DNA from: a virus
IMG/VR virus record: IMGVR_UViG_3300042330_000433
Coordinates: 1-64,000 of that record
DNA: 64,000 nucleotides
Strand: one strand, 5' to 3'
How positions within the stretch are numbered: position 1 is the stretch's first letter; every line of letters starts with the position of its first letter. The position numbers and the translations under genes were made by a program. A model generated the notes under the pieces. That model was not told the DNA's origin. It did not search any database and saw only the letters and a list, made by a program, of their open reading frames with translations. This document shows, one piece after another, positions 36,315 to 55,731 of the stretch.

Positions 36315-38299
36315 TGGCAAATAGATTTGATAATGGTTCAGTTTCAGCATATAAACCTCAAAGTTTTCAAGAACTGGCGTTTGTTCCTATGATGAAACGT
36401 AAACAACATGATGAATTAGAAGCAGCTTATATAAATGCTAAAGTTAATACGGATCCTTTAGATGTACATAAAGATGAAGCACTTCGTCTTAAAAATGAAA
36501 TTGAAGGTAAAGTAAGTTCTTTATCAGAACAACTTTCTACAAAAGGTATTACACCAGAAGCTAGAAGTTCATTTTTAAAATTTAATAAAGAATATCAAGA
36601 CTTAATTTCACCAACTGGTAGAATAGGTCAAATAAATAATGCTAAAAAAGTATATGCTGAAGAATTTAAAGAATATTTAGAAGATGCTACTAAAAATAAA
36701 GGATTTTCAAGAGAAGATGCTTTATATAATTGGCAAACACAACATCATCCTAAATATACAGGATATAATGATGCTAGAGAAATTAAAAATATTGATTCAT
36801 ATGGTGCACCAAAAAGACATATTTTACAAGAAGATTTAAAATTAGTTAAATCTTTATTAGGAGAAAACACACAAACTATTATGAAAAATAATGGTTTCAG
36901 TTTTGGAGAAGGACCAAATGGTAGTATAATTATACAAGATGGTAAAGGAAGACTTGTTGAAACTAGCAATTATCCTCAATTAAAAGAAGCTCAAGAATAT
37001 TTAACTAGTAGATGGATTCAACCTACAGGTGAAGGAACAATATCTGCTAGATTTGAAAGACAAGATCCTAAAAGAATTATTGATGAAATTAATAATGGTT
37101 TAGGTATGATGAAATCTTACAAATTAGATGACACTAGAGAAACTGATTATTCAATTCAAGGATATACTGCTCCAGAGAAAAATGTAGATCCAACAGGAGT
37201 TATTATTAGTAATGATAGTACTTTAACTTCAGATGCTGTAGCACAACCTACTTATACTAATGCTTTAGATGAAATTAAAAGATTAAGTTCTTCAAAAAGT
37301 AGAAATTCAGCAGATCAAGCTAAATTAGAAGATTTAATTGAATTAAGACAAAATGCTGATAAAAAATTAAATGCTAATCCTAAATATAATGAATTAACAA
37401 AATCTTATAATAATGCTCAAAAAGCTTATGAAGATTATGCTAATAAAATGGGAACATTTAAAGATGGTAAATGGCAAAGAGATCCTAATAAAAAAGATCC
37501 AACTACATCAAATGTTGCTTTTAAATTATCACAATTAAAAGTAAAAGCTGATGAAATTAATACTCAAAGAAGTAAAATAAAAGATAAAGCTTGGGCAAAA
37601 TCTTCTTCATTAAGACATAATTATTCATATATGCCATCTACTCCAAAAGAAGAATCTAATTGGAATTTACATAATGAAAATATATTCAATGTAATGAAAG
37701 GTGTTGATTTAGGTAATGTATTAGATTTAACAAGTATTCATACAGCAAGTGGTAGTAAGAAAAATATTGAAGATGTTGATGTTCAAAATATTCAAGAATT
37801 ATTAAAACATGGTGATCCAAAATCATTTAAAATTAATAATATTAAAACATATGGTAATAGTAAAACACCTGAAATAACAATGACTTTTAATACTACAGAA
37901 AAAGCTTCAGGATATGATTTAAAAGGTACAACTGGTTTATTTTCATCAGGTGATGATAATTATGGTGGAGCTAACAAACCAGTTACTGTTACTTTTAAAT
38001 TGAAAAAATTAACTAACTCACCAGATACTGGTTCTGCAGTAGGTTATAAAAATTTAAGTGGTGCTATTGCAGATGCTTGGAAAGATAAAGGTAGAATAAA
38101 TCAAGTTACTGGAAATTTCCAAGGAGCGGAAATTTCAACAGCTTTAATTAGTAATAGTTATGCTGATTTAACTAATGATCAATTAGCTCAACGTGCTAGT
38201 AGAGATTCTGATGCATTAACAGCTTTATATTTAAGAGCTTCAAAAAAAGGAGTTACACCAAAAGTATTACTTCAAAAATACAAAAATAATAAAAGATAA
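36314..38299 (+). CDS. internal virion cargo protein
   Basis: MANRFD...YKPQSFQEL N-terminus; precedes the giant genes; no Cys. Confidence 0.65.
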   Translation: MANRFDNGSVSAYKPQSFQELAFVPMMKRKQHDELEAAYINAKVNTDPLDVHKDEALRLKNEIEGKVSSLSEQLSTKGITPEARSSFLKFNKEYQDLISPTGRIGQINNAKKVYAEEFKEYLEDATKNKGFSREDALYNWQTQHHPKYTGYNDAREIKNIDSYGAPKRHILQEDLKLVKSLLGENTQTIMKNNGFSFGEGPNGSIIIQDGKGRLVETSNYPQLKEAQEYLTSRWIQPTGEGTISARFERQDPKRIIDEINNGLGMMKSYKLDDTRETDYSIQGYTAPEKNVDPTGVIISNDSTLTSDAVAQPTYTNALDEIKRLSSSKSRNSADQAKLEDLIELRQNADKKLNANPKYNELTKSYNNAQKAYEDYANKMGTFKDGKWQRDPNKKDPTTSNVAFKLSQLKVKADEINTQRSKIKDKAWAKSSSLRHNYSYMPSTPKEESNWNLHNENIFNVMKGVDLGNVLDLTSIHTASGSKKNIEDVDVQNIQELLKHGDPKSFKINNIKTYGNSKTPEITMTFNTTEKASGYDLKGTTGLFSSGDDNYGGANKPVTVTFKLKKLTNSPDTGSAVGYKNLSGAIADAWKDKGRINQVTGNFQGAEISTALISNSYADLTNDQLAQRASRDSDALTALYLRASKKGVTPKVLLQKYKNNKR

Positions 38300-38302: not shown

Positions 38303-41300
38303 ATGGAAGATGAAGAATTAAATAGTTATGATAAGAATTTTTTAGATTCTTTAGATGCTGGATATAAAAAATTTAATACTCCTAAAAATAAAAAATTAGC
38401 AACTAGAAATGCTTTTGATTCAGAAATACATCGTGTTAATTTTGATAGTTCTAATCAAGATGAATTAAGAGAAGGAATTAATCCTTTTCTTAATCAATTT
38501 GTAGATTTAAATGCTGAAGATCCATACAATGAAATAAGAGCTTCTAATCAATCAGGTGGTGAGCAATTAATGAAAGGTTTTGGTAGAGCTACTTCTAAAG
38601 CATTAACTGAAGTAGCTAAATTACCAGGGGTTGTAGCAGGTTCACTTGCAGCTCCATTTGTGGAAGATGGTAAAGGAATGGATATGGCATTTAATAATGC
38701 TTGGATAAGATCTTTGGATGAAATACATGAAAAAATAAATACTGATTTATTACCTGTGTATACTGCAAAAGCAGTTTCAGAAGGTAATTTATGGGATAAT
38801 ATATCTTCTACTTCATTTTGGGCAACTGATGGAGCTGATGGTATTGGTTTCGTTGCTGCAATGTTTGTTCCTGGAGCAATATTTCAATATGCAGGTTTAG
38901 GTGGTAAATTAATTAACACCTTAGCTAATTCTTCTAAATTAGCTAAATATACATCAATGGTTGGTAAAGCTGAAGATGCTGTAAACACTTTAAAGTTTAT
39001 GGGTGTTAGTGGTAGAAATATTGATAGTGGTATGGCTATCTTTGGAAATACTATATTTGAAGCAGGTGCTGAAGCAAAAGGTGTGGGTGATGATTTAGAT
39101 TCTAAAAAAGAAGATTTTTTAAATACTTATATTAATAAAGGTTATAGTCCTGAAGAAGCTGAAGAATTATTTAATGAACAAAGAGCTCTTGCAATGAAAG
39201 ATACTTTTATAGCAAATGTTGGAATATTACTTGGACCAAATGCTATAATGCATAAAGCTATTTGGGGCAAAGCTGCTCAAAAATATGAAAAAACTACAGA
39301 ACAAGGTATAAAAAGTATTGCAGAAAGAACAGGAACTAGTCTTGGTAGAGTAGGTGGTGCGTTTGCTTCTGAAGGTTTTTGGGAAGAAGGTTCTCAAACT
39401 ACTGTTGAAAATATGTATGTTGATAAAGCAATGCGTGGTGAACTTGGTAAAAATTTTACAAGTGATGCTTCTATTGGTGATTTTACTAAAGAATATATAA
39501 ATACTATAAGTAGTACAGATGGTCAAAAAGCAATATTCTTAGGTGGAGCAATTGGTGGACCAATGATGTCATATCAAGGTAGGAAACAAGATGTAGCTAA
39601 TAGAAAAAGTACAAATTTAATTTTAGATAATATTGATAAACAAATTACTAATTTTAATACAACTTTTGATAATGATATTTATTTAAAAAATGAAGATGGT
39701 ACATTTCAATTTGAAGTTGATGAAAATAATGAACCAACTACTAAAAGAAAATTAAATTATAAAAAAGTAAGAGAAGTAGCAAAAGCTTTAAACTATACAG
39801 AACAACAATCTGAATTATTAGATTTAGCAATTGAATCAGGTAATATAGATGTAGTTGAACAAATAAAACAAGATGCTATTTTTAATTTAATTATACCTGC
39901 AATATTTAATGGTGAAGCAGGATTAACTGCTTTAGAACAAAAACTTACTGCAGATAGTAAATTTAATGAACTAGTTGAAAGAGATAATATTTCAGATGAA
40001 AAGAATAAAACAAAAACTTTTGTTAAAGAAACTTTAGAAACTGCAAAATATCTTCAAAAACAAAATGAAAAATTTACAGATTTTAGTAAAGATGTAATTC
40101 AATTAGAAAATGAAAAAGCAACTTTTGAACAAAAAACTGATTTTTTAAATAAATTAAATACAAGTTATTTAAATACAAAACATGTTTTAAGACAACTTGA
40201 AAAAAACTTAAAAACTGAAGAAACTAAAAGAAGTAATATTTTAGAAGAACTTGGTTTAGAAACTAATTTACAAACTGAAGATGAATTATTAGTTAATGCT
40301 GAAACAAATAATGAATTACTAAAACAAACTAATGATAAAATTAGAGAAATAGAATCTAACATAAAAGATAATAAAAAATCTATTTCTGAAATTTGGCAAA
40401 GTAAATTAATTAATAAAAGTTTTAATGATTATATAAAAGCAGATGAAGCTGAAACTAAAGAAGCATCTGAAGAAAAAGTTTTAGAAGCTCAAGAAGTTTT
40501 AGATACAATTAAATCATTTGAAGATGAAGAAGATTTAAAAAATTACTTTTCTAAATTACCTCAAATTCAAAAAGATAATCATATTATTAGTGAAGAAGTT
40601 CAAGAACAATTTAGAAAAATTAAAGAAGCTCAAGCTTTACAAAAACAAATTAATGAAGTTGAAGCTTTAGATAAAGATAAAGAAAAGTTTGAAAAAGATT
40701 CATTTATACCAACTGATACAACACCTGAAACTAAAGAATCTATAGTAGAAACAACAGTACAAGGTTTAGAAACATTACAAACTTCTGATAATCCAGAAGT
40801 TGATAAGTCTGATAATATTATAGATAAAAGTGCAAATGGTATTCAGTCAGTAAATGAAGCTACTAATCCAACAAATGTTGCTAAAAATCAAGGTGCTGCT
40901 AGAATTATAAGTACAAATCTTACTACTGGTAAAGCATTATTTCCTAATTTAGAAAGTTTTGTAACTTATGAAAAAGAACCTAGAGATAAAACTAAAGATA
41001 GAGTAACTTTTGATGTAGGTGATATTAATCCTAAAAATGAATCTTTTACTGCAAATGAAATTTTTAAAAGAATTAAAAATGGTGAAATTTTAACTAAAGA
41101 TGAAATTGAATATGCTGCTAAGTATTTACCAATTAGTGTTACTTTATCTAATAAAGGTAATTCAGCAACATCATTTATTGATTCTATGTCAAGTCAATCA
41201 CCAAAAATTGTAGAAATAGAAACGTTACCACTTCGTAGAAGTATTATAAATGCTTTAATTGAAAACAAAGGTTCTTTTGATGGTATTATAGGTAAAGTTA

Positions 41301-42529
41301 ATAAACAATTCACAGGAGCTCTTAAATTAGGTGAACAAAATTCTAATATATTAGAGTTAGATGTATTTAAAAATATGTCTGAAGAAGATAAAATTAAATA
41401 TTTTAAAAAAAATACCGTATATGTTACTAATAAAGGAGAAGTTAAATATACTTCTAATAATGTAACTGATAATACTAAAGTTTTATCAAGTAGTAATAAA
41501 GGTGAAGTGTTTCTTAAAATACCAATGGTTAATGGTGAAATATTTTATTTAAAATTAAATACTAGTAGATTAAGTGATGAAAAAGCTGAATCTGTATTAG
41601 ATTTAATTATACTACGTTCTAATATATTAAATAAACAACAAGAATTTAATATAGATGAATTAGAAAAATATATTACAGATAACTTACCAAGTTTATTAAC
41701 TGAATTTAATTTTGTTAAAAATAATAATGATAGCATTGATGTTACTTTAGAAAAAGTAATTAATTTTGTAGTGTTTTCTCAAAATACAAATGCTAAAACT
41801 AAATTAATTTTAGGTAATGACGGTAAATTAGTATTAGGAGAATTATTACATAAAGTTAATTCACAAATTCCAGAATGGAGTGGTCAATTAGAAAGTTATA
41901 CTTATACTACCGATAGTTTAAATAATTTAGACAGTAATCAAAAACAAGCAATTGTAGAGTATCTTAAATATAAAAGACATAATGTTTTAATTACTAAAGA
42001 TAGCTCTGCTACATTTAATAATGATGATTATATTAAATATTTATTAGGTATTAATTCAGATTATGCTGTATTAACAACTAATGCTGTAGTGAATGAACCA
42101 ACATTTCAAGGTTATTCTAATATATATTTAGATCAAACTGTTGTAAATAAAAAAGCTAAAAAACAAGTTGTAGCTGAAGAAACTAAAGAAGTTAAACTGG
42201 ATACTACTGAAGATTTATTAGGTTCATTAGAAGGTATGTTTGGTGATGATGTTGTTCAAACAGTTAAACCAATAGCACCACCAGAAGTTGTTGCTCAACA
42301 AGAATTAGATTTTGAAACTAAAAAAATTAAATCTAATAAACTAAATGATATATTTAAAAATGCAGATGCTAAAACTAAAGCTAAAATAGTTGCTGTAATA
42401 GCTAAACAATTAGGAATGATGGATAAAGTTAATCCTAAAGATATGAATAGTAGTTTTAATGAATTATTTAAAGAACTTAAAGATAACGAAACTTTACAAC
42501 AAGAAATTAAAAAAATATGTGGATTATAA
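38303..42529 (+). CDS. giant internal virion (ejection) protein
   Basis: 1408 aa; Gly-rich hydrophobic N-terminal region with EGFWEEGSQ, long coiled coil. Confidence 0.7.
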   Translation: MEDEELNSYDKNFLDSLDAGYKKFNTPKNKKLATRNAFDSEIHRVNFDSSNQDELREGINPFLNQFVDLNAEDPYNEIRASNQSGGEQLMKGFGRATSKALTEVAKLPGVVAGSLAAPFVEDGKGMDMAFNNAWIRSLDEIHEKINTDLLPVYTAKAVSEGNLWDNISSTSFWATDGADGIGFVAAMFVPGAIFQYAGLGGKLINTLANSSKLAKYTSMVGKAEDAVNTLKFMGVSGRNIDSGMAIFGNTIFEAGAEAKGVGDDLDSKKEDFLNTYINKGYSPEEAEELFNEQRALAMKDTFIANVGILLGPNAIMHKAIWGKAAQKYEKTTEQGIKSIAERTGTSLGRVGGAFASEGFWEEGSQTTVENMYVDKAMRGELGKNFTSDASIGDFTKEYINTISSTDGQKAIFLGGAIGGPMMSYQGRKQDVANRKSTNLILDNIDKQITNFNTTFDNDIYLKNEDGTFQFEVDENNEPTTKRKLNYKKVREVAKALNYTEQQSELLDLAIESGNIDVVEQIKQDAIFNLIIPAIFNGEAGLTALEQKLTADSKFNELVERDNISDEKNKTKTFVKETLETAKYLQKQNEKFTDFSKDVIQLENEKATFEQKTDFLNKLNTSYLNTKHVLRQLEKNLKTEETKRSNILEELGLETNLQTEDELLVNAETNNELLKQTNDKIREIESNIKDNKKSISEIWQSKLINKSFNDYIKADEAETKEASEEKVLEAQEVLDTIKSFEDEEDLKNYFSKLPQIQKDNHIISEEVQEQFRKIKEAQALQKQINEVEALDKDKEKFEKDSFIPTDTTPETKESIVETTVQGLETLQTSDNPEVDKSDNIIDKSANGIQSVNEATNPTNVAKNQGAARIISTNLTTGKALFPNLESFVTYEKEPRDKTKDRVTFDVGDINPKNESFTANEIFKRIKNGEILTKDEIEYAAKYLPISVTLSNKGNSATSFIDSMSSQSPKIVEIETLPLRRSIINALIENKGSFDGIIGKVNKQFTGALKLGEQNSNILELDVFKNMSEEDKIKYFKKNTVYVTNKGEVKYTSNNVTDNTKVLSSSNKGEVFLKIPMVNGEIFYLKLNTSRLSDEKAESVLDLIILRSNILNKQQEFNIDELEKYITDNLPSLLTEFNFVKNNNDSIDVTLEKVINFVVFSQNTNAKTKLILGNDGKLVLGELLHKVNSQIPEWSGQLESYTYTTDSLNNLDSNQKQAIVEYLKYKRHNVLITKDSSATFNNDDYIKYLLGINSDYAVLTTNAVVNEPTFQGYSNIYLDQTVVNKKAKKQVVAEETKEVKLDTTEDLLGSLEGMFGDDVVQTVKPIAPPEVVAQQELDFETKKIKSNKLNDIFKNADAKTKAKIVAVIAKQLGMMDKVNPKDMNSSFNELFKELKDNETLQQEIKKICGL

Positions 42530-42561
42530 TTTGGTTATATCAAATTAATTTCGTATATTTG
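42530..42561 (+). promoter_or_regulatory. Bacteroidetes sigma promoter (vRNAP gene)
   Basis: TTTG(42530)-N20-TATATTTG(42554). Confidence 0.8.
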
Positions 42562-42576
42562 TATAAATTATAAAAT

Positions 42577-45500
42577 ATGGCATGTACAAGAGTATCAATT
42601 ACAGGTAAATCCGAATCAATATTATTTGATACAATCTATAATAATTTAGCAAATCAAAATGAACAGCTTGCTGATGAAATGTTTAGTCATTTTAAAAGTG
42701 AGCTTTTTAAAAAAGATTTTGGTAATTTTATTGAAGATTATAATAATAATATTATATCTGATAGAACAGACGAAAATGGTGAACCAAAACTGTTTTATAA
42801 TGAAACAGCTAAAAAATATTATTATCTAAATAAAGATAATGAAACAATATATTTTCCTTTAGTTAATAGAGGACTTCGTTCTATTTGGAATTATGACCAA
42901 ATTAATAAAATTAAATCTAGATTAGCATTAGCTTATTTTAGTAAATCTAAATTAGATTTTAATAATATTAATTTTGATAAAGCTTCACCATTACCTAAAT
43001 TAAAAGATTTTATTCTTAAAGAAATTCAAGATAAAATTAATTCTTTAGAAGAAGAAGGTGAATACTTTTCAGCAATGTCATTAGAAGAGTCTTTAAATAA
43101 TTTAGATGAATTAGTTTCAAATGTAGAAAGTTTCTTTAAAGAAATGAATCTTGAAATTAAAGAAGATGAAGAAAATGGTGAATGGATAGTTGAAGAAGAA
43201 GGTAAAGATCCAGTATTTAATCAACATTCTGCTGAAAGAAATACTAAAAAAAGTGTAAGTACAAATGTGAAACTAAGATTAAGTTTACTTAAAGATAATG
43301 AAAACTTAGATCCTATTTGGAATGAACCTACTTTTCTTAACAGAGATATGGTTTATGCTGCATTACAGGGTGTTTTATGTGAAGAAATTCCACTTCCTGG
43401 TGAAGATATATTTGAATTGCATAAAAGTGCTTTAAATCGCATATTAGCAAAGAAACCATTTCTTAAAGAATTACATAGTTATTTAAATAGTCCTGACATT
43501 ACTGAAAATCAAAAAAGTGAATTTAGTCAAGCTTTTAATTTAATTAAAAATAATCATATTGTTAGTCAGTATATTACTGATAAAAATAATGTAGTTACAC
43601 ATAAAAATTTACAAATTTCAGATACAGGTTCTAAAACTACAAAAGTTAAAGAACAATGGGATGAAAATTTTCAAAATATATTTTTATCTAAAACTAATAA
43701 ATTAAAAGATGATTCTGTAAAAAGAATAATTAATGCAGGTAAAGTTATTAAATCTAATATTGATAATATTCAAGAATTTAATAAATCTATTAAAACTGGT
43801 GTTGAATCTGAATTACAACCTAAATTTACTAAATTAGTTGAAGATATAAATTTATTTTTAAAAGCATTAGGTATTGAAACTACTCAAGAAGGTTTACAAA
43901 TATATTTAGATAATTATGGTAAAGATATTTCTTTACAAGATATGACTAATAATTTACTTACATTAGCTATTCAAACAGAATATGTAGTTAAAGGACTTAG
44001 TTCTAAATATGAAAAAGAAACTAAAGATTATAGTAGCTTTTTAACATTATCTCAAACATTTAATAAATTAGCAGCTGCTGAAGCATTTATGTTAACTGAA
44101 GGTTCTGATGCAACTATATTAACAGGTGGTAAACAAAAATGGATTTATTCTTATCCATCTTATTTATCTAGTACTATTAATCAATGGAAGAGAAATCCTC
44201 AAATATTATTAGATTTATATAAATCAGGTCAATATCAATTAGGTTCTTATTATATGGGAGTTTTAACAGCTTCTACTGATGTTAATGGTAATAAACTAGG
44301 ATATAATTCAAATGCTGAACAAATTGAAGCATCTCGTAAATTACTTGATAAAATTGATTTAGGTATCATGAATCAAATGAGTACTGAAACTGATTTTAAA
44401 AAGACTACTGATTTATCATATAAAGATTATCTTACAGATTATATTAATAAAGTAATTATTGGAGAATTTTCAAGAACGACTACACCTGCTGATAAAACTA
44501 CAGATTTACAGATTAAATTTAATTTACCTGTATCTTCTTATAATGGAATAGTAGATGGTCAGTTACAATTAAAAAAACAAACTAAAGATATATTCTTTAA
44601 TTATTTTGCATCTGAATATCATAGAATGTTAGAAGCAAGTAATGAAGTTGATAATGCTAATAATGGAGTAAGTAATGATAAATTAACACCTCATTATCAT
44701 TATCAGTATCAAGTTAAAAATTCTAAAGGTGAATCAATAGTTAATCCAAATCCTTATGATAAATCAGGTAATGCTTTTAAATCTCAATACTTTGAAAATT
44801 TATCACCTAATTCTAAAAATCAAACTGAATTAGAAAAACAATTAACTGATCGTTTATATACAGGTAGTAAATTTAATTATAGTTTGTTAGAAAGAGGATT
44901 AGATCCTGAATTAGATCAATTATTTGATTCATATCTTCAAGAAAACTTTCATAAAAGATTTACTGAAACTTTAAATTATTTACAAAGTTCTGATATTTTT
45001 ATTAGAAATGCTAAAGGATTTATTGTTCCTAATAAAATAGATAAAAATACATTAGATACTCAATATAAAAACATATCTGAATTACAAAAAGCTTATGCTA
45101 TTACTTCAGATTTTATGGTTAATGGATTAATTAACAATATTGAATTTTCTAAAATGTTTAGTGGTGATGTTGCTTACTATAAAAATATGGTAGATTATAA
45201 AAAACGTGTACCTGCAACATATACTGATGGATTACAATTAAGAATAAATAAAGATAATGAAACATTTAAAATTGCTACAATTGAAAGTGTTAATCGTAAA
45301 TCACCATTTTATGATTTATTAGTTGAATCTTTAGGTAAAAATGAAGCTAAACCATATGAATCTATAAATAGTGCTGATGCACAAGCTTGGATTACTCCTG
45401 CAAGATGGAAATTTTTAATTAAAGCTTTAGGTAAATGGACTACAGGTGCAGACAGTCATGAATCTGTATATCATAAAATGATGGATACTAGTGGTAAAAA

Positions 45501-48500
45501 TTTAATTTATACTCAAAAAGAACTTAAATTAGCTGCTCAACCATTAAAAGGTGTATATTTTTATAGAGATGCTTCTGGTAAACCTGTTTATTTAAAATAT
45601 TCGCAAGCTGTTTTATCACAAGCATTAGTTAAAAATTCTGATTTAGAAAAGTTATTCAATAAAATGAATGCTGATAAAATTGATGAAGTTATTACATTTG
45701 ATGGTGTAAAAGTAGGATCTATTGAACCAACTAAAATACATGATGATAATGGAAATATTAAAGATGAATTTGAGTTAAATAGTCAAACTTTATTTAATAG
45801 AGGGTGGAAACTTCAACAAGATTTACCAACTAAAACATTTAAAGATTTAGATGTTGGTTCACAAATTCAGAAAAATATATTTGCAGGTTTATTACATAAT
45901 AAAACTCTTGAAGGATTTGAATTAGATGGTAATCTATATAATGGTCAACAAATTATTACTGAAATAGTAAAAGCTGTCACAGGTTTAACTAATGAAGGTT
46001 TGAATTCACTTAAAAAAGAATTTAAAATTGATGATAATTTTAAAATTGGTAATATATCAGGTTTTTATAAATCATTAATTGCTGAATTAGTTAAAAGAGG
46101 TGGTTCTGAGAATGTAGTAACTGCTTTAAATGCAGAAACAACTATTGTAGGTATTCCACAATCAGCAGGTAAATTATTTAATATATTTGCTTCAGTGATG
46201 AATAGCAGACTTATTAAAATTAAAACTAATGGTGGTTCATTTATTCAAATGAGTAACTTTGGTTTAAATAAAATTGAAGCTGAATCACAAGGAGTTAGAT
46301 GGTCGCCATTAGCAGATAATACTACTAATGAACCTTATATTTATGTAAATCCAGATACAAATAGACCAACTGTTAAACCAGGTGGAATATTATTGTCAGG
46401 ATCATTTTTATCAAAACATGTTCCTAATTGGAGAAAATATTCTAATGAAGAATTATTTGTTAGTTATGATGGTGGTGAACCTATTATTAATAAAAAAATA
46501 CAAGAAACTATAATTGGTTATAGAATTCCTAATCAAGGTCTTGCATCCAATGATGCATTAAGAATTGTAGGAATACTTCCAGAAGCATCTGGAGATACTG
46601 TTGTAGCTTATACAGGTATTACTACTAAAACAGGTTCAGATTTTGACGTTGATAAAATGTATGTAATGTTTCCATCTTATAGTAAAAACTCTGAAACTGA
46701 TAGATTAGAATATAATAATTATGATGAAAACAATATTACTAAAAAAGGATTACAAAATAGATTAATTGAATTATATAAATCTGTATTAACACATCTTGAA
46801 GTATATAAATCTGTAATGAAACCAATTGATATTGATTTTATACAGAATGAACTTAATGCTTTATTTCCAGGTACATCTACTATATTTATGAATCATTTTG
46901 ATCCAGAAGTAGATCTTAAATTAAGATATTCTTTTTTAGGTGGTAAAGCTGGAGTTGGTCAAGAGGCTAATGCAATGGTTGATATTAGTAGAGAAGGTAA
47001 TCTATCTTTATTAGGAGTTAAAAATATATTATGGGGTCATCACAATGAATTAAATGAATCTAAATTTGATGAAGAATTTTCAGAAGAATTATCTGAAGAA
47101 GAATTAGATTATTATGCAGCTCAAATGCTTAAACCTAATAGTTCTACAGAACGTATTAATGAATTTAAAGATGAACTACGTAAAGTAAAAATTGGTGATT
47201 CATTAACAGCTATTTTGAATGCATTTGTAGATATTGCAAAAGATCCTTATATTTCAAAAGGTAACTGGATTATGTCAACAACTAATGTTGGTAATATGTT
47301 ACTTAGATTAGGAGCACATCCATTATATGTAGTTAACTTTTTAGCAAATCCAATTATTAAACAATATGTAGATTTTCAAAAATCTAAAGAGGGTTTAACA
47401 GATGTTCAAGATAGTGGTGATACAATTGAAAAATTTAAAAAAGAAATTGTAATTAATGCACTTGATAAAGTAGAAGGTTATACAATTAGTCTTGGTAATA
47501 TATATAAAGATTACTTTAGTCAATTAAATATAGATTATAAAAAAGAAAGATTAGCTTATCAATTAGATAATAAAATTATTACATTGCAAGAATATAATAG
47601 TTCTATTGAAAGTATAGATAAAAGTTTTAAAAATGTATCTGAAGTTTTATTAAAAAAATTAAAAATTCCTGTTGAAGAATTAACAAGGGTTATTGATAAT
47701 ATGAAACAACAACATGATATAGCTTTTAATCCTAATAAATTAAATATATTTGATAGAAAAACTAATCAATGGGATAAATATAAATTAAATTTAGAATATT
47801 TTAGAAATCAAAATACTACTAAAACACCAGATATTAACTTTCAAATTAATTTACTTAATGCTTTTAAAGAATTACAAGAGTATAGTAAAAATGTAAGAGA
47901 AAATGTTGTTGTATCTAAACTAGATACTGATGGTATGGGTAAAAGTCATAATGATTTATTTGCATTATTTAATCAAAAAGAACAAATAATGACTAAAGTT
48001 AATAATGAAGTAATAGGAGCTATAAAAGGCTTTAATACTAAGTTTGAAGGTACAACATTAGAAGCTTATTATAATAGCTTAAAATGGGTTAAAAACGTAG
48101 TAGAAAACAATGCTTTGTTATTTCCTACAGGTACATCTCAAATACAATCTATATTTAATGAAGTTTCTAATGATTTATACGGTACTAATTTAGTTAACTC
48201 TGAATTAGTAACAAAGTTATCTAAAGATTATAATACATATTTGTTAAACAAAGTATTTGATATATCTATTGAAGAAAATGATGATATACTTACTAATTTA
48301 CCTAAAAGATTACATGATTTTAATGAAGAAAATAAAGGTAAGTACTTTTTATTAGATGAATTAAATATTAAAATTTCTAAATCTAAAAAATATCAATCTA
48401 GTATTGAATTAAATAATAGAAAGAAATCTACAACATATGAAACATTATTTACTAATTCATGGAAAGATTTAATGATAGATAATCCATCATTAGCTGAAGA

Positions 48501-50058
48501 TTTAATTAAATATTCTTTTATTACTTCTGGGTTTCAAATGAATACTACTCAATTTTTTACTTATATTCCAGCTGAATATTTTATTCAAAAAGATATAAAT
48601 AATAGAGTTAATGAAATTAATAATCAAAATCAATATGATTTTTTAGATAAATTTTATTTAAATAATTTAACTGATAAAAAATTAGTAAGAAAGGTATTTA
48701 AAGATAATATTGTAGCTGATGGTGTAAATATAAATAATGGTTTTGTTAATTTATATGACAAAAAAGGAAATTATTATGTAGAATTACATACTGCACCTTC
48801 AGTAGATGCTGATCCAACTGTTAAAATTAAACCTAGATATTATAAATTAATAGGTTATGATACAGAACAAAAAGGTGTTTATGCTAGAATTCAAGAATTA
48901 GATAAAAAGTTAAATAACAAAATTTTATATAACTTTAATGACTATACAGAATTAATTAATGATGATATTATAAAACTTCAAAAATTAGTATCATTTGATA
49001 GAAATATGCAAAGTATTGATAATGAAATTGAAACTAATAATATTAAAGTTGAACAAGTATCTGAAGTTAAAGAAGTTGTTAAATCTGAAGTTATTGAATC
49101 TGATCTTTATAAAAAATATGGTATAAAAGGAATTGAAATTGTAAACAGATATTCTATTGAAGATACTAAAAATAATCTAGATAAAATTTATGTTTTTGGT
49201 GATAATACTAAAAGAGTAGGTACTGCAGGACAAGCTTCTATAAGAAATAGTGTAAATGCTGTAGGAATTGCTACAAAATTAATACCATCAAATAATGAAA
49301 GTTCATTTATGTCTGATAATGATTTTGAATCAAATAAACAATTTATAGATAGTGATATAAATAAATTAATAGAAAAATCAGATGAAAAAATAATTGTATT
49401 TCCAAAAGATGGTTTAGGTACAGGTTTAGCTAAATTGAAAGAAAAAGCTCCTCAAACTTATCAATATTTAAAAGATCAATTATTAGAAAATTTTGGTTTT
49501 GATAATGATACTGGAGAAATAACTAATTTAATAAAAACAGAATCTATTAAAAAAGAAATAGTAAATAAATCTGAAATATTAAAACCATTATTTATTAAAG
49601 ATACCACTGCTAATGTAGTTAAAGGTTCTGTTGTAAATTATAATGGTAAAAAATGGATTGTTTGGAATATAACAGACAAAGATAAAGCTCAGCTAATAGA
49701 TACTGAAGGTAATAAATTTAGTGGTACACCTAATTTAGATAAATTAAGTCCAATTGGTAATTATATTACTACTGAATTTAATGGTACTGATTATATTGTA
49801 ACACAAAATGAAAATATTTATTCATTAGATACTGGTAAGCAAGTATTTACTAATTTAGATGGTTCAACTAAATCTAAAAAAGAAAAAATTATTAATCAGA
49901 TAATTGAAGAAAATAATTTAATGCCAGAAGATAATACATCAGAAGAAGAATTTGATTTAGATTCTTTAGATTATGGTGAGATTACTGAAAGTGAATTAAA
50001 TACTTTAACAGAAGAAGAAAAAGCTACAATAGCTTGGCAAAAATTAAATTGTAAATAA
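42577..50058 (+). CDS. virion-packaged single-chain RNA polymerase (phi14:2 gp66-like)
   Basis: GYRIPNQ and GSDFDVDK (46639-46653) double-psi-barrel motifs; DAQ, QPLKG, LKYS, AFVDIAKDP. Confidence 0.92.
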   Translation: MACTRVSITGKSESILFDTIYNNLANQNEQLADEMFSHFKSELFKKDFGNFIEDYNNNIISDRTDENGEPKLFYNETAKKYYYLNKDNETIYFPLVNRGLRSIWNYDQINKIKSRLALAYFSKSKLDFNNINFDKASPLPKLKDFILKEIQDKINSLEEEGEYFSAMSLEESLNNLDELVSNVESFFKEMNLEIKEDEENGEWIVEEEGKDPVFNQHSAERNTKKSVSTNVKLRLSLLKDNENLDPIWNEPTFLNRDMVYAALQGVLCEEIPLPGEDIFELHKSALNRILAKKPFLKELHSYLNSPDITENQKSEFSQAFNLIKNNHIVSQYITDKNNVVTHKNLQISDTGSKTTKVKEQWDENFQNIFLSKTNKLKDDSVKRIINAGKVIKSNIDNIQEFNKSIKTGVESELQPKFTKLVEDINLFLKALGIETTQEGLQIYLDNYGKDISLQDMTNNLLTLAIQTEYVVKGLSSKYEKETKDYSSFLTLSQTFNKLAAAEAFMLTEGSDATILTGGKQKWIYSYPSYLSSTINQWKRNPQILLDLYKSGQYQLGSYYMGVLTASTDVNGNKLGYNSNAEQIEASRKLLDKIDLGIMNQMSTETDFKKTTDLSYKDYLTDYINKVIIGEFSRTTTPADKTTDLQIKFNLPVSSYNGIVDGQLQLKKQTKDIFFNYFASEYHRMLEASNEVDNANNGVSNDKLTPHYHYQYQVKNSKGESIVNPNPYDKSGNAFKSQYFENLSPNSKNQTELEKQLTDRLYTGSKFNYSLLERGLDPELDQLFDSYLQENFHKRFTETLNYLQSSDIFIRNAKGFIVPNKIDKNTLDTQYKNISELQKAYAITSDFMVNGLINNIEFSKMFSGDVAYYKNMVDYKKRVPATYTDGLQLRINKDNETFKIATIESVNRKSPFYDLLVESLGKNEAKPYESINSADAQAWITPARWKFLIKALGKWTTGADSHESVYHKMMDTSGKNLIYTQKELKLAAQPLKGVYFYRDASGKPVYLKYSQAVLSQALVKNSDLEKLFNKMNADKIDEVITFDGVKVGSIEPTKIHDDNGNIKDEFELNSQTLFNRGWKLQQDLPTKTFKDLDVGSQIQKNIFAGLLHNKTLEGFELDGNLYNGQQIITEIVKAVTGLTNEGLNSLKKEFKIDDNFKIGNISGFYKSLIAELVKRGGSENVVTALNAETTIVGIPQSAGKLFNIFASVMNSRLIKIKTNGGSFIQMSNFGLNKIEAESQGVRWSPLADNTTNEPYIYVNPDTNRPTVKPGGILLSGSFLSKHVPNWRKYSNEELFVSYDGGEPIINKKIQETIIGYRIPNQGLASNDALRIVGILPEASGDTVVAYTGITTKTGSDFDVDKMYVMFPSYSKNSETDRLEYNNYDENNITKKGLQNRLIELYKSVLTHLEVYKSVMKPIDIDFIQNELNALFPGTSTIFMNHFDPEVDLKLRYSFLGGKAGVGQEANAMVDISREGNLSLLGVKNILWGHHNELNESKFDEEFSEELSEEELDYYAAQMLKPNSSTERINEFKDELRKVKIGDSLTAILNAFVDIAKDPYISKGNWIMSTTNVGNMLLRLGAHPLYVVNFLANPIIKQYVDFQKSKEGLTDVQDSGDTIEKFKKEIVINALDKVEGYTISLGNIYKDYFSQLNIDYKKERLAYQLDNKIITLQEYNSSIESIDKSFKNVSEVLLKKLKIPVEELTRVIDNMKQQHDIAFNPNKLNIFDRKTNQWDKYKLNLEYFRNQNTTKTPDINFQINLLNAFKELQEYSKNVRENVVVSKLDTDGMGKSHNDLFALFNQKEQIMTKVNNEVIGAIKGFNTKFEGTTLEAYYNSLKWVKNVVENNALLFPTGTSQIQSIFNEVSNDLYGTNLVNSELVTKLSKDYNTYLLNKVFDISIEENDDILTNLPKRLHDFNEENKGKYFLLDELNIKISKSKKYQSSIELNNRKKSTTYETLFTNSWKDLMIDNPSLAEDLIKYSFITSGFQMNTTQFFTYIPAEYFIQKDINNRVNEINNQNQYDFLDKFYLNNLTDKKLVRKVFKDNIVADGVNINNGFVNLYDKKGNYYVELHTAPSVDADPTVKIKPRYYKLIGYDTEQKGVYARIQELDKKLNNKILYNFNDYTELINDDIIKLQKLVSFDRNMQSIDNEIETNNIKVEQVSEVKEVVKSEVIESDLYKKYGIKGIEIVNRYSIEDTKNNLDKIYVFGDNTKRVGTAGQASIRNSVNAVGIATKLIPSNNESSFMSDNDFESNKQFIDSDINKLIEKSDEKIIVFPKDGLGTGLAKLKEKAPQTYQYLKDQLLENFGFDNDTGEITNLIKTESIKKEIVNKSEILKPLFIKDTTANVVKGSVVNYNGKKWIVWNITDKDKAQLIDTEGNKFSGTPNLDKLSPIGNYITTEFNGTDYIVTQNENIYSLDTGKQVFTNLDGSTKSKKEKIINQIIEENNLMPEDNTSEEEFDLDSLDYGEITESELNTLTEEEKATIAWQKLNCK

Positions 50059-53000
50059 ATGGCAAATTGCATAAATACAAGCTCAAAAGAATATATTGAG
50101 TTATTAGAACAATCAAAATTAAATCCATTAATCCTGAAGGCTAGAATTTCTATCTTTCAGGATAAAAATGGTTTAGATTCATATCCTAAATTAGAAGATA
50201 TTTTAAAATCCAATCAAGTTAATACAACTTTAAAAGCTGTAGATATTTTACAATCTGATAAAGCTAAACAAATATTTGAAAAAGGTAAAAAAGCTGGTTG
50301 GGATTTAAATAAAATTCTTACAGAACTTCAAATACCTAAAGAACAGAAGCAATTACTTTTAGATTTAAATATTACTGATAGAGAACAATTAGCTGTAGAA
50401 TTAGCTTTTAAATATAGCTACAGTGTTGAAGTTAATACTACTAAAAGTAAAGGTAATGAAGATGGTTTTAGTTTAGATGATCATTATGATTTAGATTTTA
50501 AAGATCAATACAGAGAAAGTAATGGTAAGTATTATGAAATAAATATTTACGGTGATAATGAAGCTCAAGAAATAAGTAAAGAAGTTTATGATATAGCTAA
50601 ACAAAATTATAAAAATAATGAATTAGAAAAAGAAAATAATAAACCTAATAGTTCATATTATTCTAACCTAACAGTTCCAGGTGGTACTAATTATACAGAA
50701 AATGAAATAGCTACACCATTAATTACACCTAGTATTAAAGGTCATGCTCAATTTAGCACAGATAATGGAATAGGATGGTTTAGAAGTGATGATGCTTTAG
50801 TTAATAATGGTTTAACACAAGAAGAATTAGATAATATTCCACAAGAATATTTAGAAGAAGCTTTACATACAACTAAAACTAGAAGAATACTTGAAGTACA
50901 ATCTGATTTATTTCAGAAAGGTAGAGATAAAGAATGGTTATCTAGAGAAATGAATAGTTTAACTCCAGAAGAAGTAGCTAATGAACCTGAATGGCTTAGA
51001 CCTATTGGAACAATTGTTAAAAGTGATAGTAAAAAAAATGCATTTTTAAATCTATTAATAAAAGATTCTAACTGGGTTACATTCTTTGTTAAATCTATTA
51101 TACAAGATAGTGCTAAAAAAGGATATGAGAAAGTGTTATTTCCAAGTGGAGATACAGCTAGTAAAGTTGAAGGTCATACAACATTAGAAGAGTTTAAAAA
51201 ACAGAAAGAAGATAGAATTAAAGAACTTGAAAAAACAAAAAATAAAGTTAAAAATTCTAATAAAGATGAATATGCTGATGCTGCTTACGGTGAAGTTTTA
51301 GGAAAAAATGATTATTTAAATAGTGTAAATAATGAAATAAATCAACTTAAACAAGAACTTGAAAGAGTTGAAGGACCAGAAGGATTTGGTGCTTTAAAAC
51401 CTATTTATAGCTTCTATGAAAATACTGTAACTAATATTCTTAATAAAACTTACGGTAAAGATAATGTAAATGTTATTACTGATGAATATGGTAATACTTG
51501 GAATGAAATTACTTTAGATAATAAAAGAGATACTTCTACTATTTTTATGAAACAAGATTTATCTGAATTTGTAAATGAAACAGGTGAAAATTTATTTCAA
51601 GATAATCAAAGTCAAGGTATCCAATCTAATAAAATTTATAAATCTAATGAATTATTATTTGGTAATAAATCTAAAATTACAGTTGATGAAGTATTAGATA
51701 ATATTATTACTAATTTTCCTAATTTAGATAGTACAACTAAAGAATTAATTAAAAGATCAAAAAAATTACTTAACAAATCTAAAGCGACTGTTAAGTTTAT
51801 TAATGAATCTGAATTATCTGATGATTTAACTATTATGCAATATGAATCAGATAATAATGAAATTCAAATTAGTAAAGCTAGATTATCTAAATATAATGAA
51901 AAAGAATCTGTAATTGCATTTTTACATGAAGTAGTACATGGTCAAACTGTACAAGCTATGTTAAAACCTGCAAATGAAAGAACTTTTGCGGAACAAGACT
52001 TAGTTGATGTAATTGAAGCATTTTTATCTAAATATAAAAATAGTGATATAAAATCAGAATATGGTTTTACTGATAAATTTGAATTTGTAGCTGAATTTTA
52101 TGCTAATCCTGATTTTAGAAATAAAGTTAAAGAAACTTCAGAAGTTTGGTGGCAAAAAATAATGAATGCTATTAGAAGATTATTTGATATTCCAGCTAAT
52201 CCTGAATATAAAAAGTTATTTGATACAATTATTAATTATGTTGAATTAGAATCTCAAGATTATGTTGGTATTAAAAGATATGATAATATTTTTCAAAAAC
52301 AAGTTCAACCTGAAAATATTGAATTAGATACTATTGAAAAACAATTACAACATACAGTTAATCAAGCTAAAGATAGGATTACTCAATTAATTAAAAGAAC
52401 TAAAGCTGCAGCTAATGTTAAAAATAAAGAAGAACATAAAAACTTTATTAAATTATTTGAAGCTTTATTAGATGAAATTGTTTTAGCTGAAAGAAATAAT
52501 AAATGGAAATCTATTACTTCATATGCTAAATCATTTTCTAGTGCTGTAAGTAAGCTTAATAATAGTTTAAATAAAGCATTACGTATTGGAGTAGTAACTC
52601 ATAATAATATAATTTATCATAAAGAACAATTTGATTTATTTAGACCTGTAAGTGTTGCTGGTAAATATATAATTGCTGAAGATATATATGAATTATATAA
52701 AAATGATCCTTTTATTGAAAATTTAGTTAAAGCTGATAATTTAGATATTAATGATGATTTATATAATACTTTAGATAATTTATCTACAAAAGATTTAGAT
52801 ACTTTTGAAATGTTAAAACTTGTTGATAGTTATGAAGAATATTTATCAGCATATGATTTATTAGATGAAATTAATTCTTTAATTACTAGAAGTCAAAATG
52901 ATAAAACATTAGAAAGAAAAGATAAAGTTCAAATTGAAGAAATTAAAAAAGTATTACATAATTTAAAAGATGGTCATCAAAATTTAACAGATTCATTTAT

Positions 53001-55674
53001 AAATATTAAAAAAGCATATGCTGTTACAGAATTTTCTAAGCCTGAAAATAACACTAAAGTTGTTACAGAATGGAAAAATAAATTGTTTGCAGAACATACT
53101 AAATTAAATATTAAATCTGAAACTAAAGAAGAATATTTTGGTAGAATGATTCAAACAAAACATAAATCTGATTATCAAAATGCTTTAAGAGAAAGTGCTC
53201 GTAAAATTGTATATGATCCTTACTTTGATATTTCAACATTTGATAGAAATACTACAGATATTTTAAATATAAATTCTCCATTAATCAATCTTATATCAAA
53301 TACTATTGGTAAAATGAGAGATAATATTATAAATGCTTATCATGATAAACAATTTCAACTAAATAAAATATTTAAAAAATATTCTAAAGAAAAAGGACAA
53401 AATAAGCAATCTGAAATGTATGGAAATATTATTGAATTAAGTCAAAATGATCAATATTATTTAAAAGGAGAATACTCTACTAAATTTTTAGATTCTGTTC
53501 AAAATGAATTATATCCTATATTAGATAAAATAACTGAATTAAAAGAAAAATATAGTTCACAATTTGATACTAAAAAAGAAGCTTTAAAAGCATTAAATAA
53601 AGATGTAGAATATAAAGCTTTAAAATCTAAAAGAAAAGCTTGGTTTAGTGCTAATACTATTTCTATTAATGAAGAAACTGTTCCACATCCTAAATACAAG
53701 AATGCTGAAGTTACAGGTGTTGAAAAAGAATTATTAGATTATTTTAAATCTGAAACAGATAATAATAATGTAACTGTTTATAATAATCATGTTAGTTTAG
53801 TTAAATCTGTATATGGTGCTAAATTTTACAAAATTCCTTCTGTTACTAAATCTAATTTAGAAAGAACACTTGAGGGTGATGTTAAAGGTCAACTAAAAGA
53901 TAAATGGACTGATTTAACAGAAGTTAAAGTTGATGATGTAAATTATGGTGAAGCGGTAGATAGTAAAAACAAAGAAAAAAGAACTGTTAAAATTGGATTT
54001 AGAGGTAAGCTTGATTCAAAAGATCAATCTTTAGATTTATTTACTGTATATAGAAAAGAAGCTTTAAATGCAATTAATTATAAAGAAAAAAAATCTAATG
54101 AAATAAAACTTAAATTATTTGTAAATATAGCTTCATCTAAAGAATATAAAAAACGTTCTATTCAAACTGGTAAATGGTTACAAAATAAATATGCAACACA
54201 TGCTCCAGGAACTACATTTAGTGGTGAATTTTCTCAAGAACTTAAAAAAATTGAAGGTCTTTTAGAAACTCATTTATATGATGTGTTATCTTATAGTGGT
54301 GGTAAAATATTTGGTTCAAAATTAGAAGCAACTAAATTAGCATCTATGGTAAATGGATTTGCTGCAAATATTGCAATGACTGCTAACTTAGGTTCAGGAG
54401 TTGTCAATGTGTTAAATGGTGTTACTCAAATGTTTTTAACTTCTGCTGGTGGATATACATTTAATAAAACAGACTTATTAAAAGCTGAAGCTCATTATAG
54501 TAAAAATATAATGAATATATTAGCTGATTTAAATCAACCTGTTAAACAATCATTTCATAACCAAATGTTAGATATGTTTGATATATTTGGTGGATTTGAT
54601 ACTGCTACTCAAGAATTTATACGCAATAGTTATGCTAAAAAAATCATTTCAACTCATTCAATGAATGGATTAAATGAAATGGGTGAGCATATGATGAATG
54701 CTATATTAACTGAATCTATCTTAAGAGGTATTAAAGTTATGAATTCTGAAAGAAAATATATTAATAAAGAAGGAACTATAGTTGAAGAATCAAATGCAGC
54801 TTCATTATTTGATATGTTATCATTAAATTCTGATGGTAAACTTGTTATGAGTGATAAAGTTGTTTATACTAAAAAGAATATTGATTCTAAATATCATGAA
54901 GGTGGTAAACAACATATTAATTATGTAATTAAAAAGAAAGCTCATGATATATTTGGTGTATACGACCCATTAATGAAAGCTGAAATTGCTAAAACATGGT
55001 GGGGTAAAACACTAATGATGTTTAAAAACTTCTTTTTATCTTCTTTAAAACATAGATATAAAGGAATTCAAACTTCATTAACAGCTAAAGAAGATTTAAC
55101 TGAAGATGATATGTCATTTAATAATGCAGAACAAGAGTTTACAGAAGGTATTTATACTACATTCATACGTTTTATAAGACAAGGTGTTATACCTAACTTA
55201 AATGGTTTTAAATTAGCTTATATGAGAGATAATTATAATGCTTTATCTGATTATGAAAAAGCTAATTTAAAAAATACTACATTAGAGGTTTGTTTAACTA
55301 TGGTTATACTTCCTTTATTAGGTATGCTTTTAGGTGCAGCTGCAGGAGATGATGATGATGAATTATTTTTTGCAATGTATGCTTTTAGAAGACTTGAATC
55401 AGAACTTTCACAATTTAGAAATCCAATGGAGTTACAAAGAATGATTGCTAATCCAGTTGCAGCTAACAGATTTATTCAAAACTGTGCAAACGTAGTAAAT
55501 GATGTTGTAACACCTATTAATTTTAATCCTCAAAGAAATGAAACTTTCTTTGATTATTTTAGTGAAGATTCAAAACATAACAATGTATTAGTAAAACATG
55601 TTAAAAAAATAACTCCTTTCTACGCTCAATTAGACAAAGAATATAAAAATCTCTACAATCTATTGAATAAATAA
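50059..55674 (+). CDS. giant polyvalent virion protein with zincin metallopeptidase domain
   Basis: FLHEVVH...EFVAE, EVQSD domain, C-terminal hydrophobic helix. Confidence 0.8.
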   Translation: MANCINTSSKEYIELLEQSKLNPLILKARISIFQDKNGLDSYPKLEDILKSNQVNTTLKAVDILQSDKAKQIFEKGKKAGWDLNKILTELQIPKEQKQLLLDLNITDREQLAVELAFKYSYSVEVNTTKSKGNEDGFSLDDHYDLDFKDQYRESNGKYYEINIYGDNEAQEISKEVYDIAKQNYKNNELEKENNKPNSSYYSNLTVPGGTNYTENEIATPLITPSIKGHAQFSTDNGIGWFRSDDALVNNGLTQEELDNIPQEYLEEALHTTKTRRILEVQSDLFQKGRDKEWLSREMNSLTPEEVANEPEWLRPIGTIVKSDSKKNAFLNLLIKDSNWVTFFVKSIIQDSAKKGYEKVLFPSGDTASKVEGHTTLEEFKKQKEDRIKELEKTKNKVKNSNKDEYADAAYGEVLGKNDYLNSVNNEINQLKQELERVEGPEGFGALKPIYSFYENTVTNILNKTYGKDNVNVITDEYGNTWNEITLDNKRDTSTIFMKQDLSEFVNETGENLFQDNQSQGIQSNKIYKSNELLFGNKSKITVDEVLDNIITNFPNLDSTTKELIKRSKKLLNKSKATVKFINESELSDDLTIMQYESDNNEIQISKARLSKYNEKESVIAFLHEVVHGQTVQAMLKPANERTFAEQDLVDVIEAFLSKYKNSDIKSEYGFTDKFEFVAEFYANPDFRNKVKETSEVWWQKIMNAIRRLFDIPANPEYKKLFDTIINYVELESQDYVGIKRYDNIFQKQVQPENIELDTIEKQLQHTVNQAKDRITQLIKRTKAAANVKNKEEHKNFIKLFEALLDEIVLAERNNKWKSITSYAKSFSSAVSKLNNSLNKALRIGVVTHNNIIYHKEQFDLFRPVSVAGKYIIAEDIYELYKNDPFIENLVKADNLDINDDLYNTLDNLSTKDLDTFEMLKLVDSYEEYLSAYDLLDEINSLITRSQNDKTLERKDKVQIEEIKKVLHNLKDGHQNLTDSFINIKKAYAVTEFSKPENNTKVVTEWKNKLFAEHTKLNIKSETKEEYFGRMIQTKHKSDYQNALRESARKIVYDPYFDISTFDRNTTDILNINSPLINLISNTIGKMRDNIINAYHDKQFQLNKIFKKYSKEKGQNKQSEMYGNIIELSQNDQYYLKGEYSTKFLDSVQNELYPILDKITELKEKYSSQFDTKKEALKALNKDVEYKALKSKRKAWFSANTISINEETVPHPKYKNAEVTGVEKELLDYFKSETDNNNVTVYNNHVSLVKSVYGAKFYKIPSVTKSNLERTLEGDVKGQLKDKWTDLTEVKVDDVNYGEAVDSKNKEKRTVKIGFRGKLDSKDQSLDLFTVYRKEALNAINYKEKKSNEIKLKLFVNIASSKEYKKRSIQTGKWLQNKYATHAPGTTFSGEFSQELKKIEGLLETHLYDVLSYSGGKIFGSKLEATKLASMVNGFAANIAMTANLGSGVVNVLNGVTQMFLTSAGGYTFNKTDLLKAEAHYSKNIMNILADLNQPVKQSFHNQMLDMFDIFGGFDTATQEFIRNSYAKKIISTHSMNGLNEMGEHMMNAILTESILRGIKVMNSERKYINKEGTIVEESNAASLFDMLSLNSDGKLVMSDKVVYTKKNIDSKYHEGGKQHINYVIKKKAHDIFGVYDPLMKAEIAKTWWGKTLMMFKNFFLSSLKHRYKGIQTSLTAKEDLTEDDMSFNNAEQEFTEGIYTTFIRFIRQGVIPNLNGFKLAYMRDNYNALSDYEKANLKNTTLEVCLTMVILPLLGMLLGAAAGDDDDELFFAMYAFRRLESELSQFRNPMELQRMIANPVAANRFIQNCANVVNDVVTPINFNPQRNETFFDYFSEDSKHNNVLVKHVKKITPFYAQLDKEYKNLYNLLNK

Positions 55675-55717: not shown

Positions 55718-55731
55718 GCATTTATAATAAT

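Follow-up and report, generated by a model that had tools for sequence, protein, structure and literature searches.

Facing terminal cysteines on three giant cargo proteins suggest a head-to-tail disulfide chain in crassviruses

Among the phages of the human gut, the Crassvirales are the most abundant. Here we examine the cysteines of three giant cargo proteins that are encoded one after another in a 64,000-nucleotide stretch of viral DNA (positions 1 to 64,000 of the IMG/VR record IMGVR_UViG_3300042330_000433, hereafter the window), and compare them with the closest described systems. The record that holds the window is 92,212 bases long and has a CheckV completeness of about 91%. We label the three proteins P1, P2 and P3 in gene order; P2 is the virion RNA polymerase and is called RNAP throughout. 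Of the named phages, Cellulophaga phage phi14:2 comes closest, with an identity of about 28%. Like phi14:2 (gp078-gp077-gp076) and crAss001 (gp47-gp50-gp49), the window phage encodes homologous muzzle, cargo protein 1, cargo protein 2, P1, RNAP and P3 proteins.

The virions of crAss001 contain gp47, gp49 and gp50, and many inter-subunit disulfides are found in its tail; the cryo-electron microscopy (cryo-EM) paper lists disulfides of the tail and the portal vertex only and leaves the cysteines of the cargo unmentioned (PMC10172136). The structure raised the question of how folded enzymes of about 0.7 MDa, including the RNAP, cross a narrow tail. For phi14:2, the polymerase named gp077 in GenBank corresponds to gp66 of Drobysheva et al. 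(PDB 6VR4), and the record carries the annotation "structural protein, MS/MS". The words cysteine and disulfide are absent from the phi14:2 preprint. [quoted passage not shown]

A disulfide of the kind considered here has been seen in a cyanophage. The cryo-EM structure of phage A4 (Anabaena phage A-4L) contains a disulfide between gp27 Cys1715 and gp26 Cys5 in the intracapsid pre-ejectosome, where the C-terminal helix of gp27 lies in a cleft of gp26 (PNAS 2025, PMC12002296). The bond is mentioned there in passing, and neither a sole-cysteine rule nor conservation is stated. From the A-4L genome we find that Cys1715 is the sole cysteine of the 1717 residues of gp27, that Cys5 is the sole cysteine of the 1114 residues of gp26, and that the neighbouring ejection protein gp29 has none. 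In one solved case, then, the sequence signature described below corresponds to a real intracapsid disulfide. A second group, the N4-like phages (Schitoviridae; N4 gp50, DEV gp71/gp72/gp73), resembles the crassviruses in ejecting a giant virion RNAP and in strongly suppressing cysteine, which the authors explained by passage through the periplasm (PMC11445570).

In the window, P1 (38303-42529, plus strand; 1408 residues, 157.8 kDa), RNAP (42577-50058, plus strand; 2493 residues, 285.3 kDa) and P3 (50059-55674, plus strand; 1871 residues, 215.5 kDa) together hold seven cysteines in 5772 residues, while cargo proteins 1 and 2 hold none. Our recount agrees with an earlier sequence-only reading of this DNA, which had drawn attention to these numbers, and it reproduces the positions given there. 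Four of the seven cysteines sit at facing termini. The only cysteine of P1, Cys1406, is the third residue from the C-terminus (KKICGL; codon TGT at 42518-42520) and is followed by RNAP Cys3 (MAC; codon at 42583-42585). At the other end of the RNAP, Cys2492 is the second residue from the C-terminus (LNCK; codon at 50050-50052) and is followed by P3 Cys4 (MANC; codon at 50068-50070). The two outer termini, the N-terminus of P1 and the C-terminus of P3, are free of cysteine, again as that reading had it. The remaining three cysteines are internal: RNAP Cys268, P3 Cys1745 and P3 Cys1809. Each of the four termini agrees with the consensus of its family, and the gene starts and ends are no artefact of gene calling.

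Cysteine makes up 1.30% of the other proteins of the window (143 of 11,028 residues), so that about 75 would be expected in the three giants. The probability that seven cysteines placed at random in 5772 positions fill all four facing windows of four residues is 1.9e-10, in this window alone, and that of three or fewer internal cysteines at the 1.30% background is 2e-28. Chance is excluded as the source of the pattern. RNAP Cys268 (window 43378) recurs at positions 267-270 in some relatives (P0004, P0008, P0046, P0053, P0056 and L007), suggesting that it is a tolerated or functional internal cysteine there rather than a random survivor.

The phi14:2 trio displays the same arrangement. It has four cysteines in 5398 residues, all at facing termini: the last residue of gp078 (ending NTIC), residues 3 and 2179 of the 2180-residue RNAP (starting MACK and ending ECK), and residue 3 of gp076 (starting MSCK). 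The window phage differs from phi14:2 in its low identity (about 28%), in a DUF7831 passenger domain and in its three internal cysteines. It also differs from the N4-like phages, whose ejection proteins have essentially no cysteine, termini included; crassviruses have one cysteine per facing terminus, and the terminal cysteines of the window trio are invariant.

To establish how far the pattern extends, we assembled 354 cluster representatives from three protein searches, comprising 120 P1, 120 RNAP and 114 P3 homologues. P1 has a cysteine within its last 12 residues in 114 of 120 homologues and near its N-terminus in none of the 120. RNAP has a cysteine at both ends in 105 of 120, and P3 has an N-terminal cysteine in 113 of 114 and a C-terminal one in 0 of 114. 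Every exception among the 354 is a truncated or intron-cut fragment. Alignment to full-length relatives showed that the six P1 outliers end 130-730 residues early, without the conserved C-proximal motif, and that the first 165 residues are missing from the single P3 outlier; among the RNAPs, outliers either are truncated at the N-terminus or end at the catalytic motif. Complete proteins accordingly obey the rule without exception (P1, 114/114; RNAP, 105/105; P3, 113/113).

RNAP Cys3, RNAP Cys2492, P1 Cys1406 and P3 Cys4 are invariant alignment columns, in alignments whose members are 35-60% identical to the window protein for RNAP, and down to 19% for P1 and 23% for P3. The N-terminal cysteines occupy positions 3-5, and the C-terminal ones are followed by 0-3 further residues (rarely by up to 6). 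Internal cysteines number 9 in 192,032 residues, 14 in 282,625 and 25 in 169,001 across the three families (0.005%, 0.005% and 0.015%), 100-275 times rarer than the 1.30% window background. The 23 RNAPs of at least 2750 residues, most of which are listed with helicase or other passenger domains, have exactly two cysteines, or one if the N-terminus is truncated. By these alignments, the terminal-cysteine pattern is a family rule and not chance, and the tabulation across Crassvirales that the sequence-only reading had set as its test came out in favour of the pattern: the terminal cysteines are invariant, co-occur at junctions and vanish pairwise in fusions, as described below.

Passenger enzymes have a hotspot in the C-terminal extension of the RNAP; among them are AlkB (PF13532), a RecD-like helicase (PF13604/PF13245), PF08719 and PF18760, in homologues P0005, P0015-P0045, P0070/71/86/117 and P0091. 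In the RNAPs of at least 2750 residues there is no cysteine between the terminal two, and the cysteine-bearing tail remains at the extreme end of the protein. In the window, the DUF7831 passenger domain (RNAP residues 2190-2301; 49144-49479, plus strand; PF25176, E 3.5e-36; phrog_2072) likewise lies between the RNAP core and the cysteine tail.

The arrangement of the genes bears on which cysteines belong together. In a survey of 66 non-redundant IMG/VR loci, the C-terminal cysteine of P1 faces the N-terminal cysteine of RNAP, and the C-terminal cysteine of RNAP faces the N-terminal cysteine of P3. The exceptions are mis-assignments, a frameshifted P1 (L054), a locus in which an insertion of unrelated genes precedes P3 (L018), RNAPs cut by introns, and a P1 whose sole cysteine lies 31 residues from the end (L032).

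Where P1 and RNAP are fused, as in Flavobacterium phage FPSV-F12 (4419 residues), in L077-L079 (3593-4720 residues) and in the Suoliviridae phages cr50_1 and cr53_1, there is no cysteine at the old junction, while the C-terminal cysteine is kept and P3 still starts M-x-C. Where RNAP and P3 are fused, as in L042/L044 (3516-3525 residues, one cysteine in total), in crAss002-like phages and in cr271_1, P1 keeps its C-terminal cysteine and the fusion keeps the N-terminal cysteine only. Each fusion thus removes one C-terminal and one N-terminal cysteine and leaves the other two, as expected if the cysteines of a junction are partners. An alternative pairing, for instance a cyclised RNAP together with a P1-P3 link, would leave an orphan cysteine after each fusion. 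Head-to-tail pairing in the order P1-RNAP-P3 is, on this comparison of genes, the most economical reading of the losses. The sequence-only reading had proposed linking in gene order; its pairing fits the fusion losses, but gene order as such fails in crAss001-like phages. In crAss001 and its relatives, the gene for gp47 (P1) runs opposite to those for gp50 (RNAP) and gp49 (P3), and the three-part pattern persists, which indicates that the rule concerns proteins and not gene boundaries. In crAss001, gp47 ends RCNS, gp50 starts MSKRC and ends ICGANTLYEL, and gp49 starts MAKKC.

The fusions also bear on the idea that each terminal cysteine binds some other partner, such as the portal, the capsid interior or another cargo protein, or acts as a packaging or secretion tag, with no mutual pairing. 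The evidence for pairing is indirect, which speaks for this account. It would have to explain, however, why both cysteines of a junction are lost jointly in at least two kinds of fusion and in several lineages while the other junction stays intact, why the number of C-terminal cysteines equals that of N-terminal cysteines in every genome, and why the outer termini never carry one. Cargo proteins 1 and 2, being free of cysteine, have nothing to offer as partners. We consider this account very unlikely indeed.

We also considered whether signals in the DNA where genes meet (for ribosome binding or reinitiation) give rise to the pattern as a side effect, or whether chance does. At 50050-50070, the RNAP and P3 genes do abut in one frame, with only a TAA between them (TGT AAA TAA ATG GCA AAT TGC). 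Yet the intergenic spacers of relatives vary from overlaps to about 600 nucleotides, other genes are inserted in L018, and crAss001 gp47 does not adjoin gp50. Furthermore, the place of the cysteine varies by 0-6 residues, and its codon may be TGT or TGC. Together with the probability given above, these observations already refute this explanation. The same stop-then-ATG arrangement occurs in L014, L020, L023, L025 and L035, so that one stop codon separates the split from the fused form.

Several apparent complications in the gene structures were followed up. Split RNAPs without a junction cysteine were tried as counter-examples and rejected, since the breaks fall inside the catalytic motif and the gaps match a group I intron model, which points to interrupted genes and not to split proteins; the intron matches have E values of about 1e-6, below the Rfam gathering score. 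The inserts, of about 0.9 kb, lie after TKTGSD of TKTGSDFDIDK or a few dozen residues beyond (L009, L030, L010, L038, L072, L118 and L128), and the intron-model matches fall at L009:11654-12597 and L030:14059-14990. A likeness between an internal cysteine of the crAss002 fusion, in the motif CGAN, and the C-terminus of crAss001 gp50 was likewise rejected: blastp offsets place the true crAss002 junction 500-900 residues beyond CGAN, in a cysteine-free stretch. In L184 (cr53_1, Suoliviridae), the cargo genes contain many in-frame stops under table 11 (40 in the P1+RNAP fusion), which fits the stop-codon reassignment known in some crassviruses; the terminal-cysteine rule is intact there, with a tail ending KECK and a head starting MQC.

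The likeness to cyanophage A4 is close in layout. As in A4, the window encodes consecutive, putatively virion-internal ejection proteins, of which the upstream one has a C-terminal cysteine and the downstream one a cysteine within its first five residues or so. A4 has a single link between two proteins and no RNA polymerase, whereas two links through a middle protein are proposed for the window; the A4 structure resolves its proteins as a folded pre-ejectosome with five-fold arrangement, unlike the maps of crassvirus cargo. A phmmer comparison of A4 gp26 and gp27 with the window proteins gave no match at E up to 10, and blastp gave chance-level alignments only (E >=0.2). At the sequence level, the likeness is therefore one of design and not of demonstrable descent. 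The sequence-only reading had known of no description of such a system. The A4 disulfide, with the same sole-cysteine signature (PMC12002296), takes away part of that claim. For Crassvirales it stands within the literature that we searched, on crAss and Crassvirales cysteines, disulfides and phage ejection proteins, in which we found no description of the terminal-cysteine pattern. The proposed version with two links and three proteins around a virion RNAP, and its conservation across the order, are new to that literature.

We modelled the complex of the P1 tail (residues 1300-1408) with the RNAP head (residues 1-450) in three runs. The median score was 0.65 (runs 0.70, 0.02 and 0.65), against 0.01 for the best control; in the benchmark, 58 of the 80 solved complexes and 2 of the 110 mismatched pairs attained this mark, counts that hold roughly here because the alignments were our own. 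The model runs share at least 23% of their contacts, and the partner pLDDT (predicted local distance difference test) is at least 63. Confident contacts are predicted between P1 residues 1356-1384 (42368-42454, plus strand) and RNAP residues 101-108, 161-171 and 246-247, so that the predicted docking surface for the P1 tail covers RNAP residues 101-171 (42877-43089, plus strand) together with 246-247. The model supports, but does not show, binding of the P1 tail to the N-terminal region of the RNAP.

The model is also relevant to an explanation in which the disulfides would staple together a folded core of cargo inside the capsid, the proteins separating or being reduced before or during ejection and not travelling as one linear thread. 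The authors of the A4 structure describe a "mortise-and-tenon" pre-ejectosome, with the gp27 helix in the gp26 cleft and the disulfide stabilising a folded assembly (PMC12002296), and our model similarly has a helix-on-domain dock 22-50 residues upstream of the cysteine. The tail-barrel constrictions of crAss001, moreover, are <50 A, so that partial rather than full unfolding would be needed (PMC10172136). A staple, however, needs neither a cysteine 0-3 residues from the C-terminus and another at N-terminal position 3-5 in more than 300 lineages, nor an extreme purging of all other cysteines, passenger domains included. We regard it as unlikely.

The motifs around the terminal cysteines were compared in several ways. 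A shared N-terminal domain on RNAP and P3 was rejected, as hhalign of the full alignments gave a probability of 0.6% and no match; among 36 pairs of the first 120 residues of RNAP and P3, hhalign aligned only an 8-column "MsC" motif, at a probability of 19%. A profile comparison of the P1 tail with the RNAP tail gave no match. Across a junction, tail and head motifs come in flavours that look cognate by eye, and their co-variation, controlled for RNAP-core identity, gave weak partial correlations of 0.10-0.14. The RNAP-tail/P3-head pair alone stands out among distant cores (5.64 vs 2.48, 11 pairs). Because these two ends are adjacent in the DNA, linkage explains that signal as well as co-adaptation does, and we rejected co-variation as evidence for pairing.

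The sequences tell only that two thiols belong together and leave the chemistry unspecified; instead of a disulfide, a metal ion that bridges the facing thiols, or a different cross-link between them, might make the connection. Against this, there are only two cysteines per junction and no conserved adjoining His, Asp or second cysteine, the flanking residues being mostly I/K/R/N before and G/K after. In A4, the precedent with the same signature, the link is a plain disulfide. We therefore hold a non-disulfide link to be very unlikely.

Taken together, these data make it probable, in our judgement, that two inter-protein disulfides join P1, RNAP and P3 head to tail within the particle; these would be P1 Cys1406-RNAP Cys3 and RNAP Cys2492-P3 Cys4. 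The sequence-only reading, which had proposed disulfide or metal links of this kind, is supported in part. In the mechanism that we propose, the C-terminal tail of the upstream protein would dock non-covalently on the N-terminal region of the downstream one, and the near-terminal thiols would then oxidise inside the capsid or once the particle leaves the reducing cytoplasm. The resulting 1:1:1 hetero-trimer of about 659 kDa would be packed and delivered as one unit. Since each cysteine lies within about five residues of a chain end, the linked product would be nearly linear and could take a partly unfolded route through portal, tail and envelope. Other cysteines would have been purged, also from acquired passenger enzyme domains, so that wrong or branching bonds could not form.

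A further step would be for the trimer to make its passage as a single linear hetero-polymer of some 5800 residues (659 kDa, about 2 um when stretched), threaded in a fixed order and cut by the reducing cytoplasm. P1, with its C-terminal cysteine, would serve as starter, RNAP, with one at both ends, as extender, and P3, with its N-terminal cysteine, as terminator of a "protein train" through the tail, with redox state as the delivery signal. The short stubs and the strict purging lend this picture of a single thread with reductive release some plausibility; we put it forward as a tentative possibility, and a doubtful one. We infer the bond in crassviruses, the timing of its formation, and its role in stoichiometry, co-ejection and reductive release.

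A number of observations weigh against the disulfide-linked chain or parts of it. The bonds would have to form in spite of a reducing host cytoplasm and, for many phages, an anaerobic host, which makes the time and place of oxidation problematic. No match to a thioredoxin-fold protein was found in the 92-kb virus record, a search that did not extend to other oxidoreductase families. The disulfide has been observed in A4 only and in no crassvirus, and the crAss001 maps do not resolve the zone of the cargo (PMC10172136). Recombinant phi14:2 gp66 is active alone (preprint), so that a link is not needed for catalysis. The purging of cysteines is incomplete, as the window keeps RNAP Cys268 and P3 Cys1745 and Cys1809, and Intestiviridae fusions have 5-14 internal cysteines. 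In the complex model, one of the three runs scored 0.02, and Cys1406 and RNAP Cys3 lie outside the confident contacts, their proximity not being modelled. Finally, the C-tail motifs are common to P1 and RNAP, which leaves the specificity of pairing unexplained.

A conserved covalent tether, if true, would explain equal copy numbers, joint packaging and ordered delivery of the three proteins, as well as the near absence of cysteine within them. Together with cyanophage A4, it suggests a recurring design in podophage ejection systems, perhaps by convergence. The signature itself, a sole cysteine at each facing terminus, can be used to recognise injected cargo and to correct gene starts. For crAss002 gp33, the annotated start (L002:13538-13636) is probably 32 codons too far upstream: Met33-Ser-Cys35 corresponds to the MSC N-terminus of the family, and the IMG/VR relatives L138, L150 and L169 start at this MSC.

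The identities of the three proteins were established by comparison with known relatives. The RNAP matches PDB 6VR4 (phi14:2 gp66) with an E value of 1.4e-195 over query residues 32-1391, and tblastn aligned it to phi14:2 with 28% identity over 78%. Its DFDVD catalytic motif (residue 1355; 46639-46653, plus strand) sits inside an invariant TKTGSDFD(I/V)DKM block. The counterparts of P1 are crAss001 gp47 and phi14:2 GenBank gp078, and those of P3 are crAss001 gp49 and phi14:2 GenBank gp076. P3 contains an HEVVH motif (HExxH type; residues 623-627; 51925-51939, plus strand; family alignment consensus FLHEVxH), which fits the zincin-like protease domain ascribed to phi14:2 gp65 in the phi14:2 preprint.

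Upstream of P1, cargo protein 1 (34656-36314, plus strand; 552 residues; Pfam crAss_CARG1, E 3.8e-14) and cargo protein 2 (36314-38299, plus strand; 661 residues) lie outside the proposed chain. Cargo protein 2 was assigned from its position, that of C2 in relatives, and its N-terminus, MANRFDN/MNRY, is common to the C2 proteins of relatives. The crassvirus muzzle protein (29856-33944, plus strand; crAss_MUZ, E 6e-203) is separated from cargo protein 1 by an open reading frame for a GIY-YIG/NUMOD1 homing endonuclease (34082-34666, plus strand; 194 residues, four cysteines), which shares 11 nucleotides with the beginning of cargo protein 1 and is missing from this position in relatives. Some marine relatives encode, upstream of the cargo block, a smaller protein with just one C-x7-8-C pair: a 420-residue protein in L051/L001 (Cys369 and Cys378), and others in L065 (299/307, 558/567) and L069 (188/196); the window is without such a protein.

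No transfer RNA gene was found in the window. The coding strand and the GC skew flip at about 56 kb (about 55700-56350), where the structural and cargo genes of the plus strand adjoin small genes on the minus strand. The DUF7831/phrog_2072 domain carried by the RNAP is also encoded, as a small protein with 39-45% identity, by phiCbK-like phages of Caulobacter and by phages of Brevundimonas, Rhizobium and Rhodobacter.

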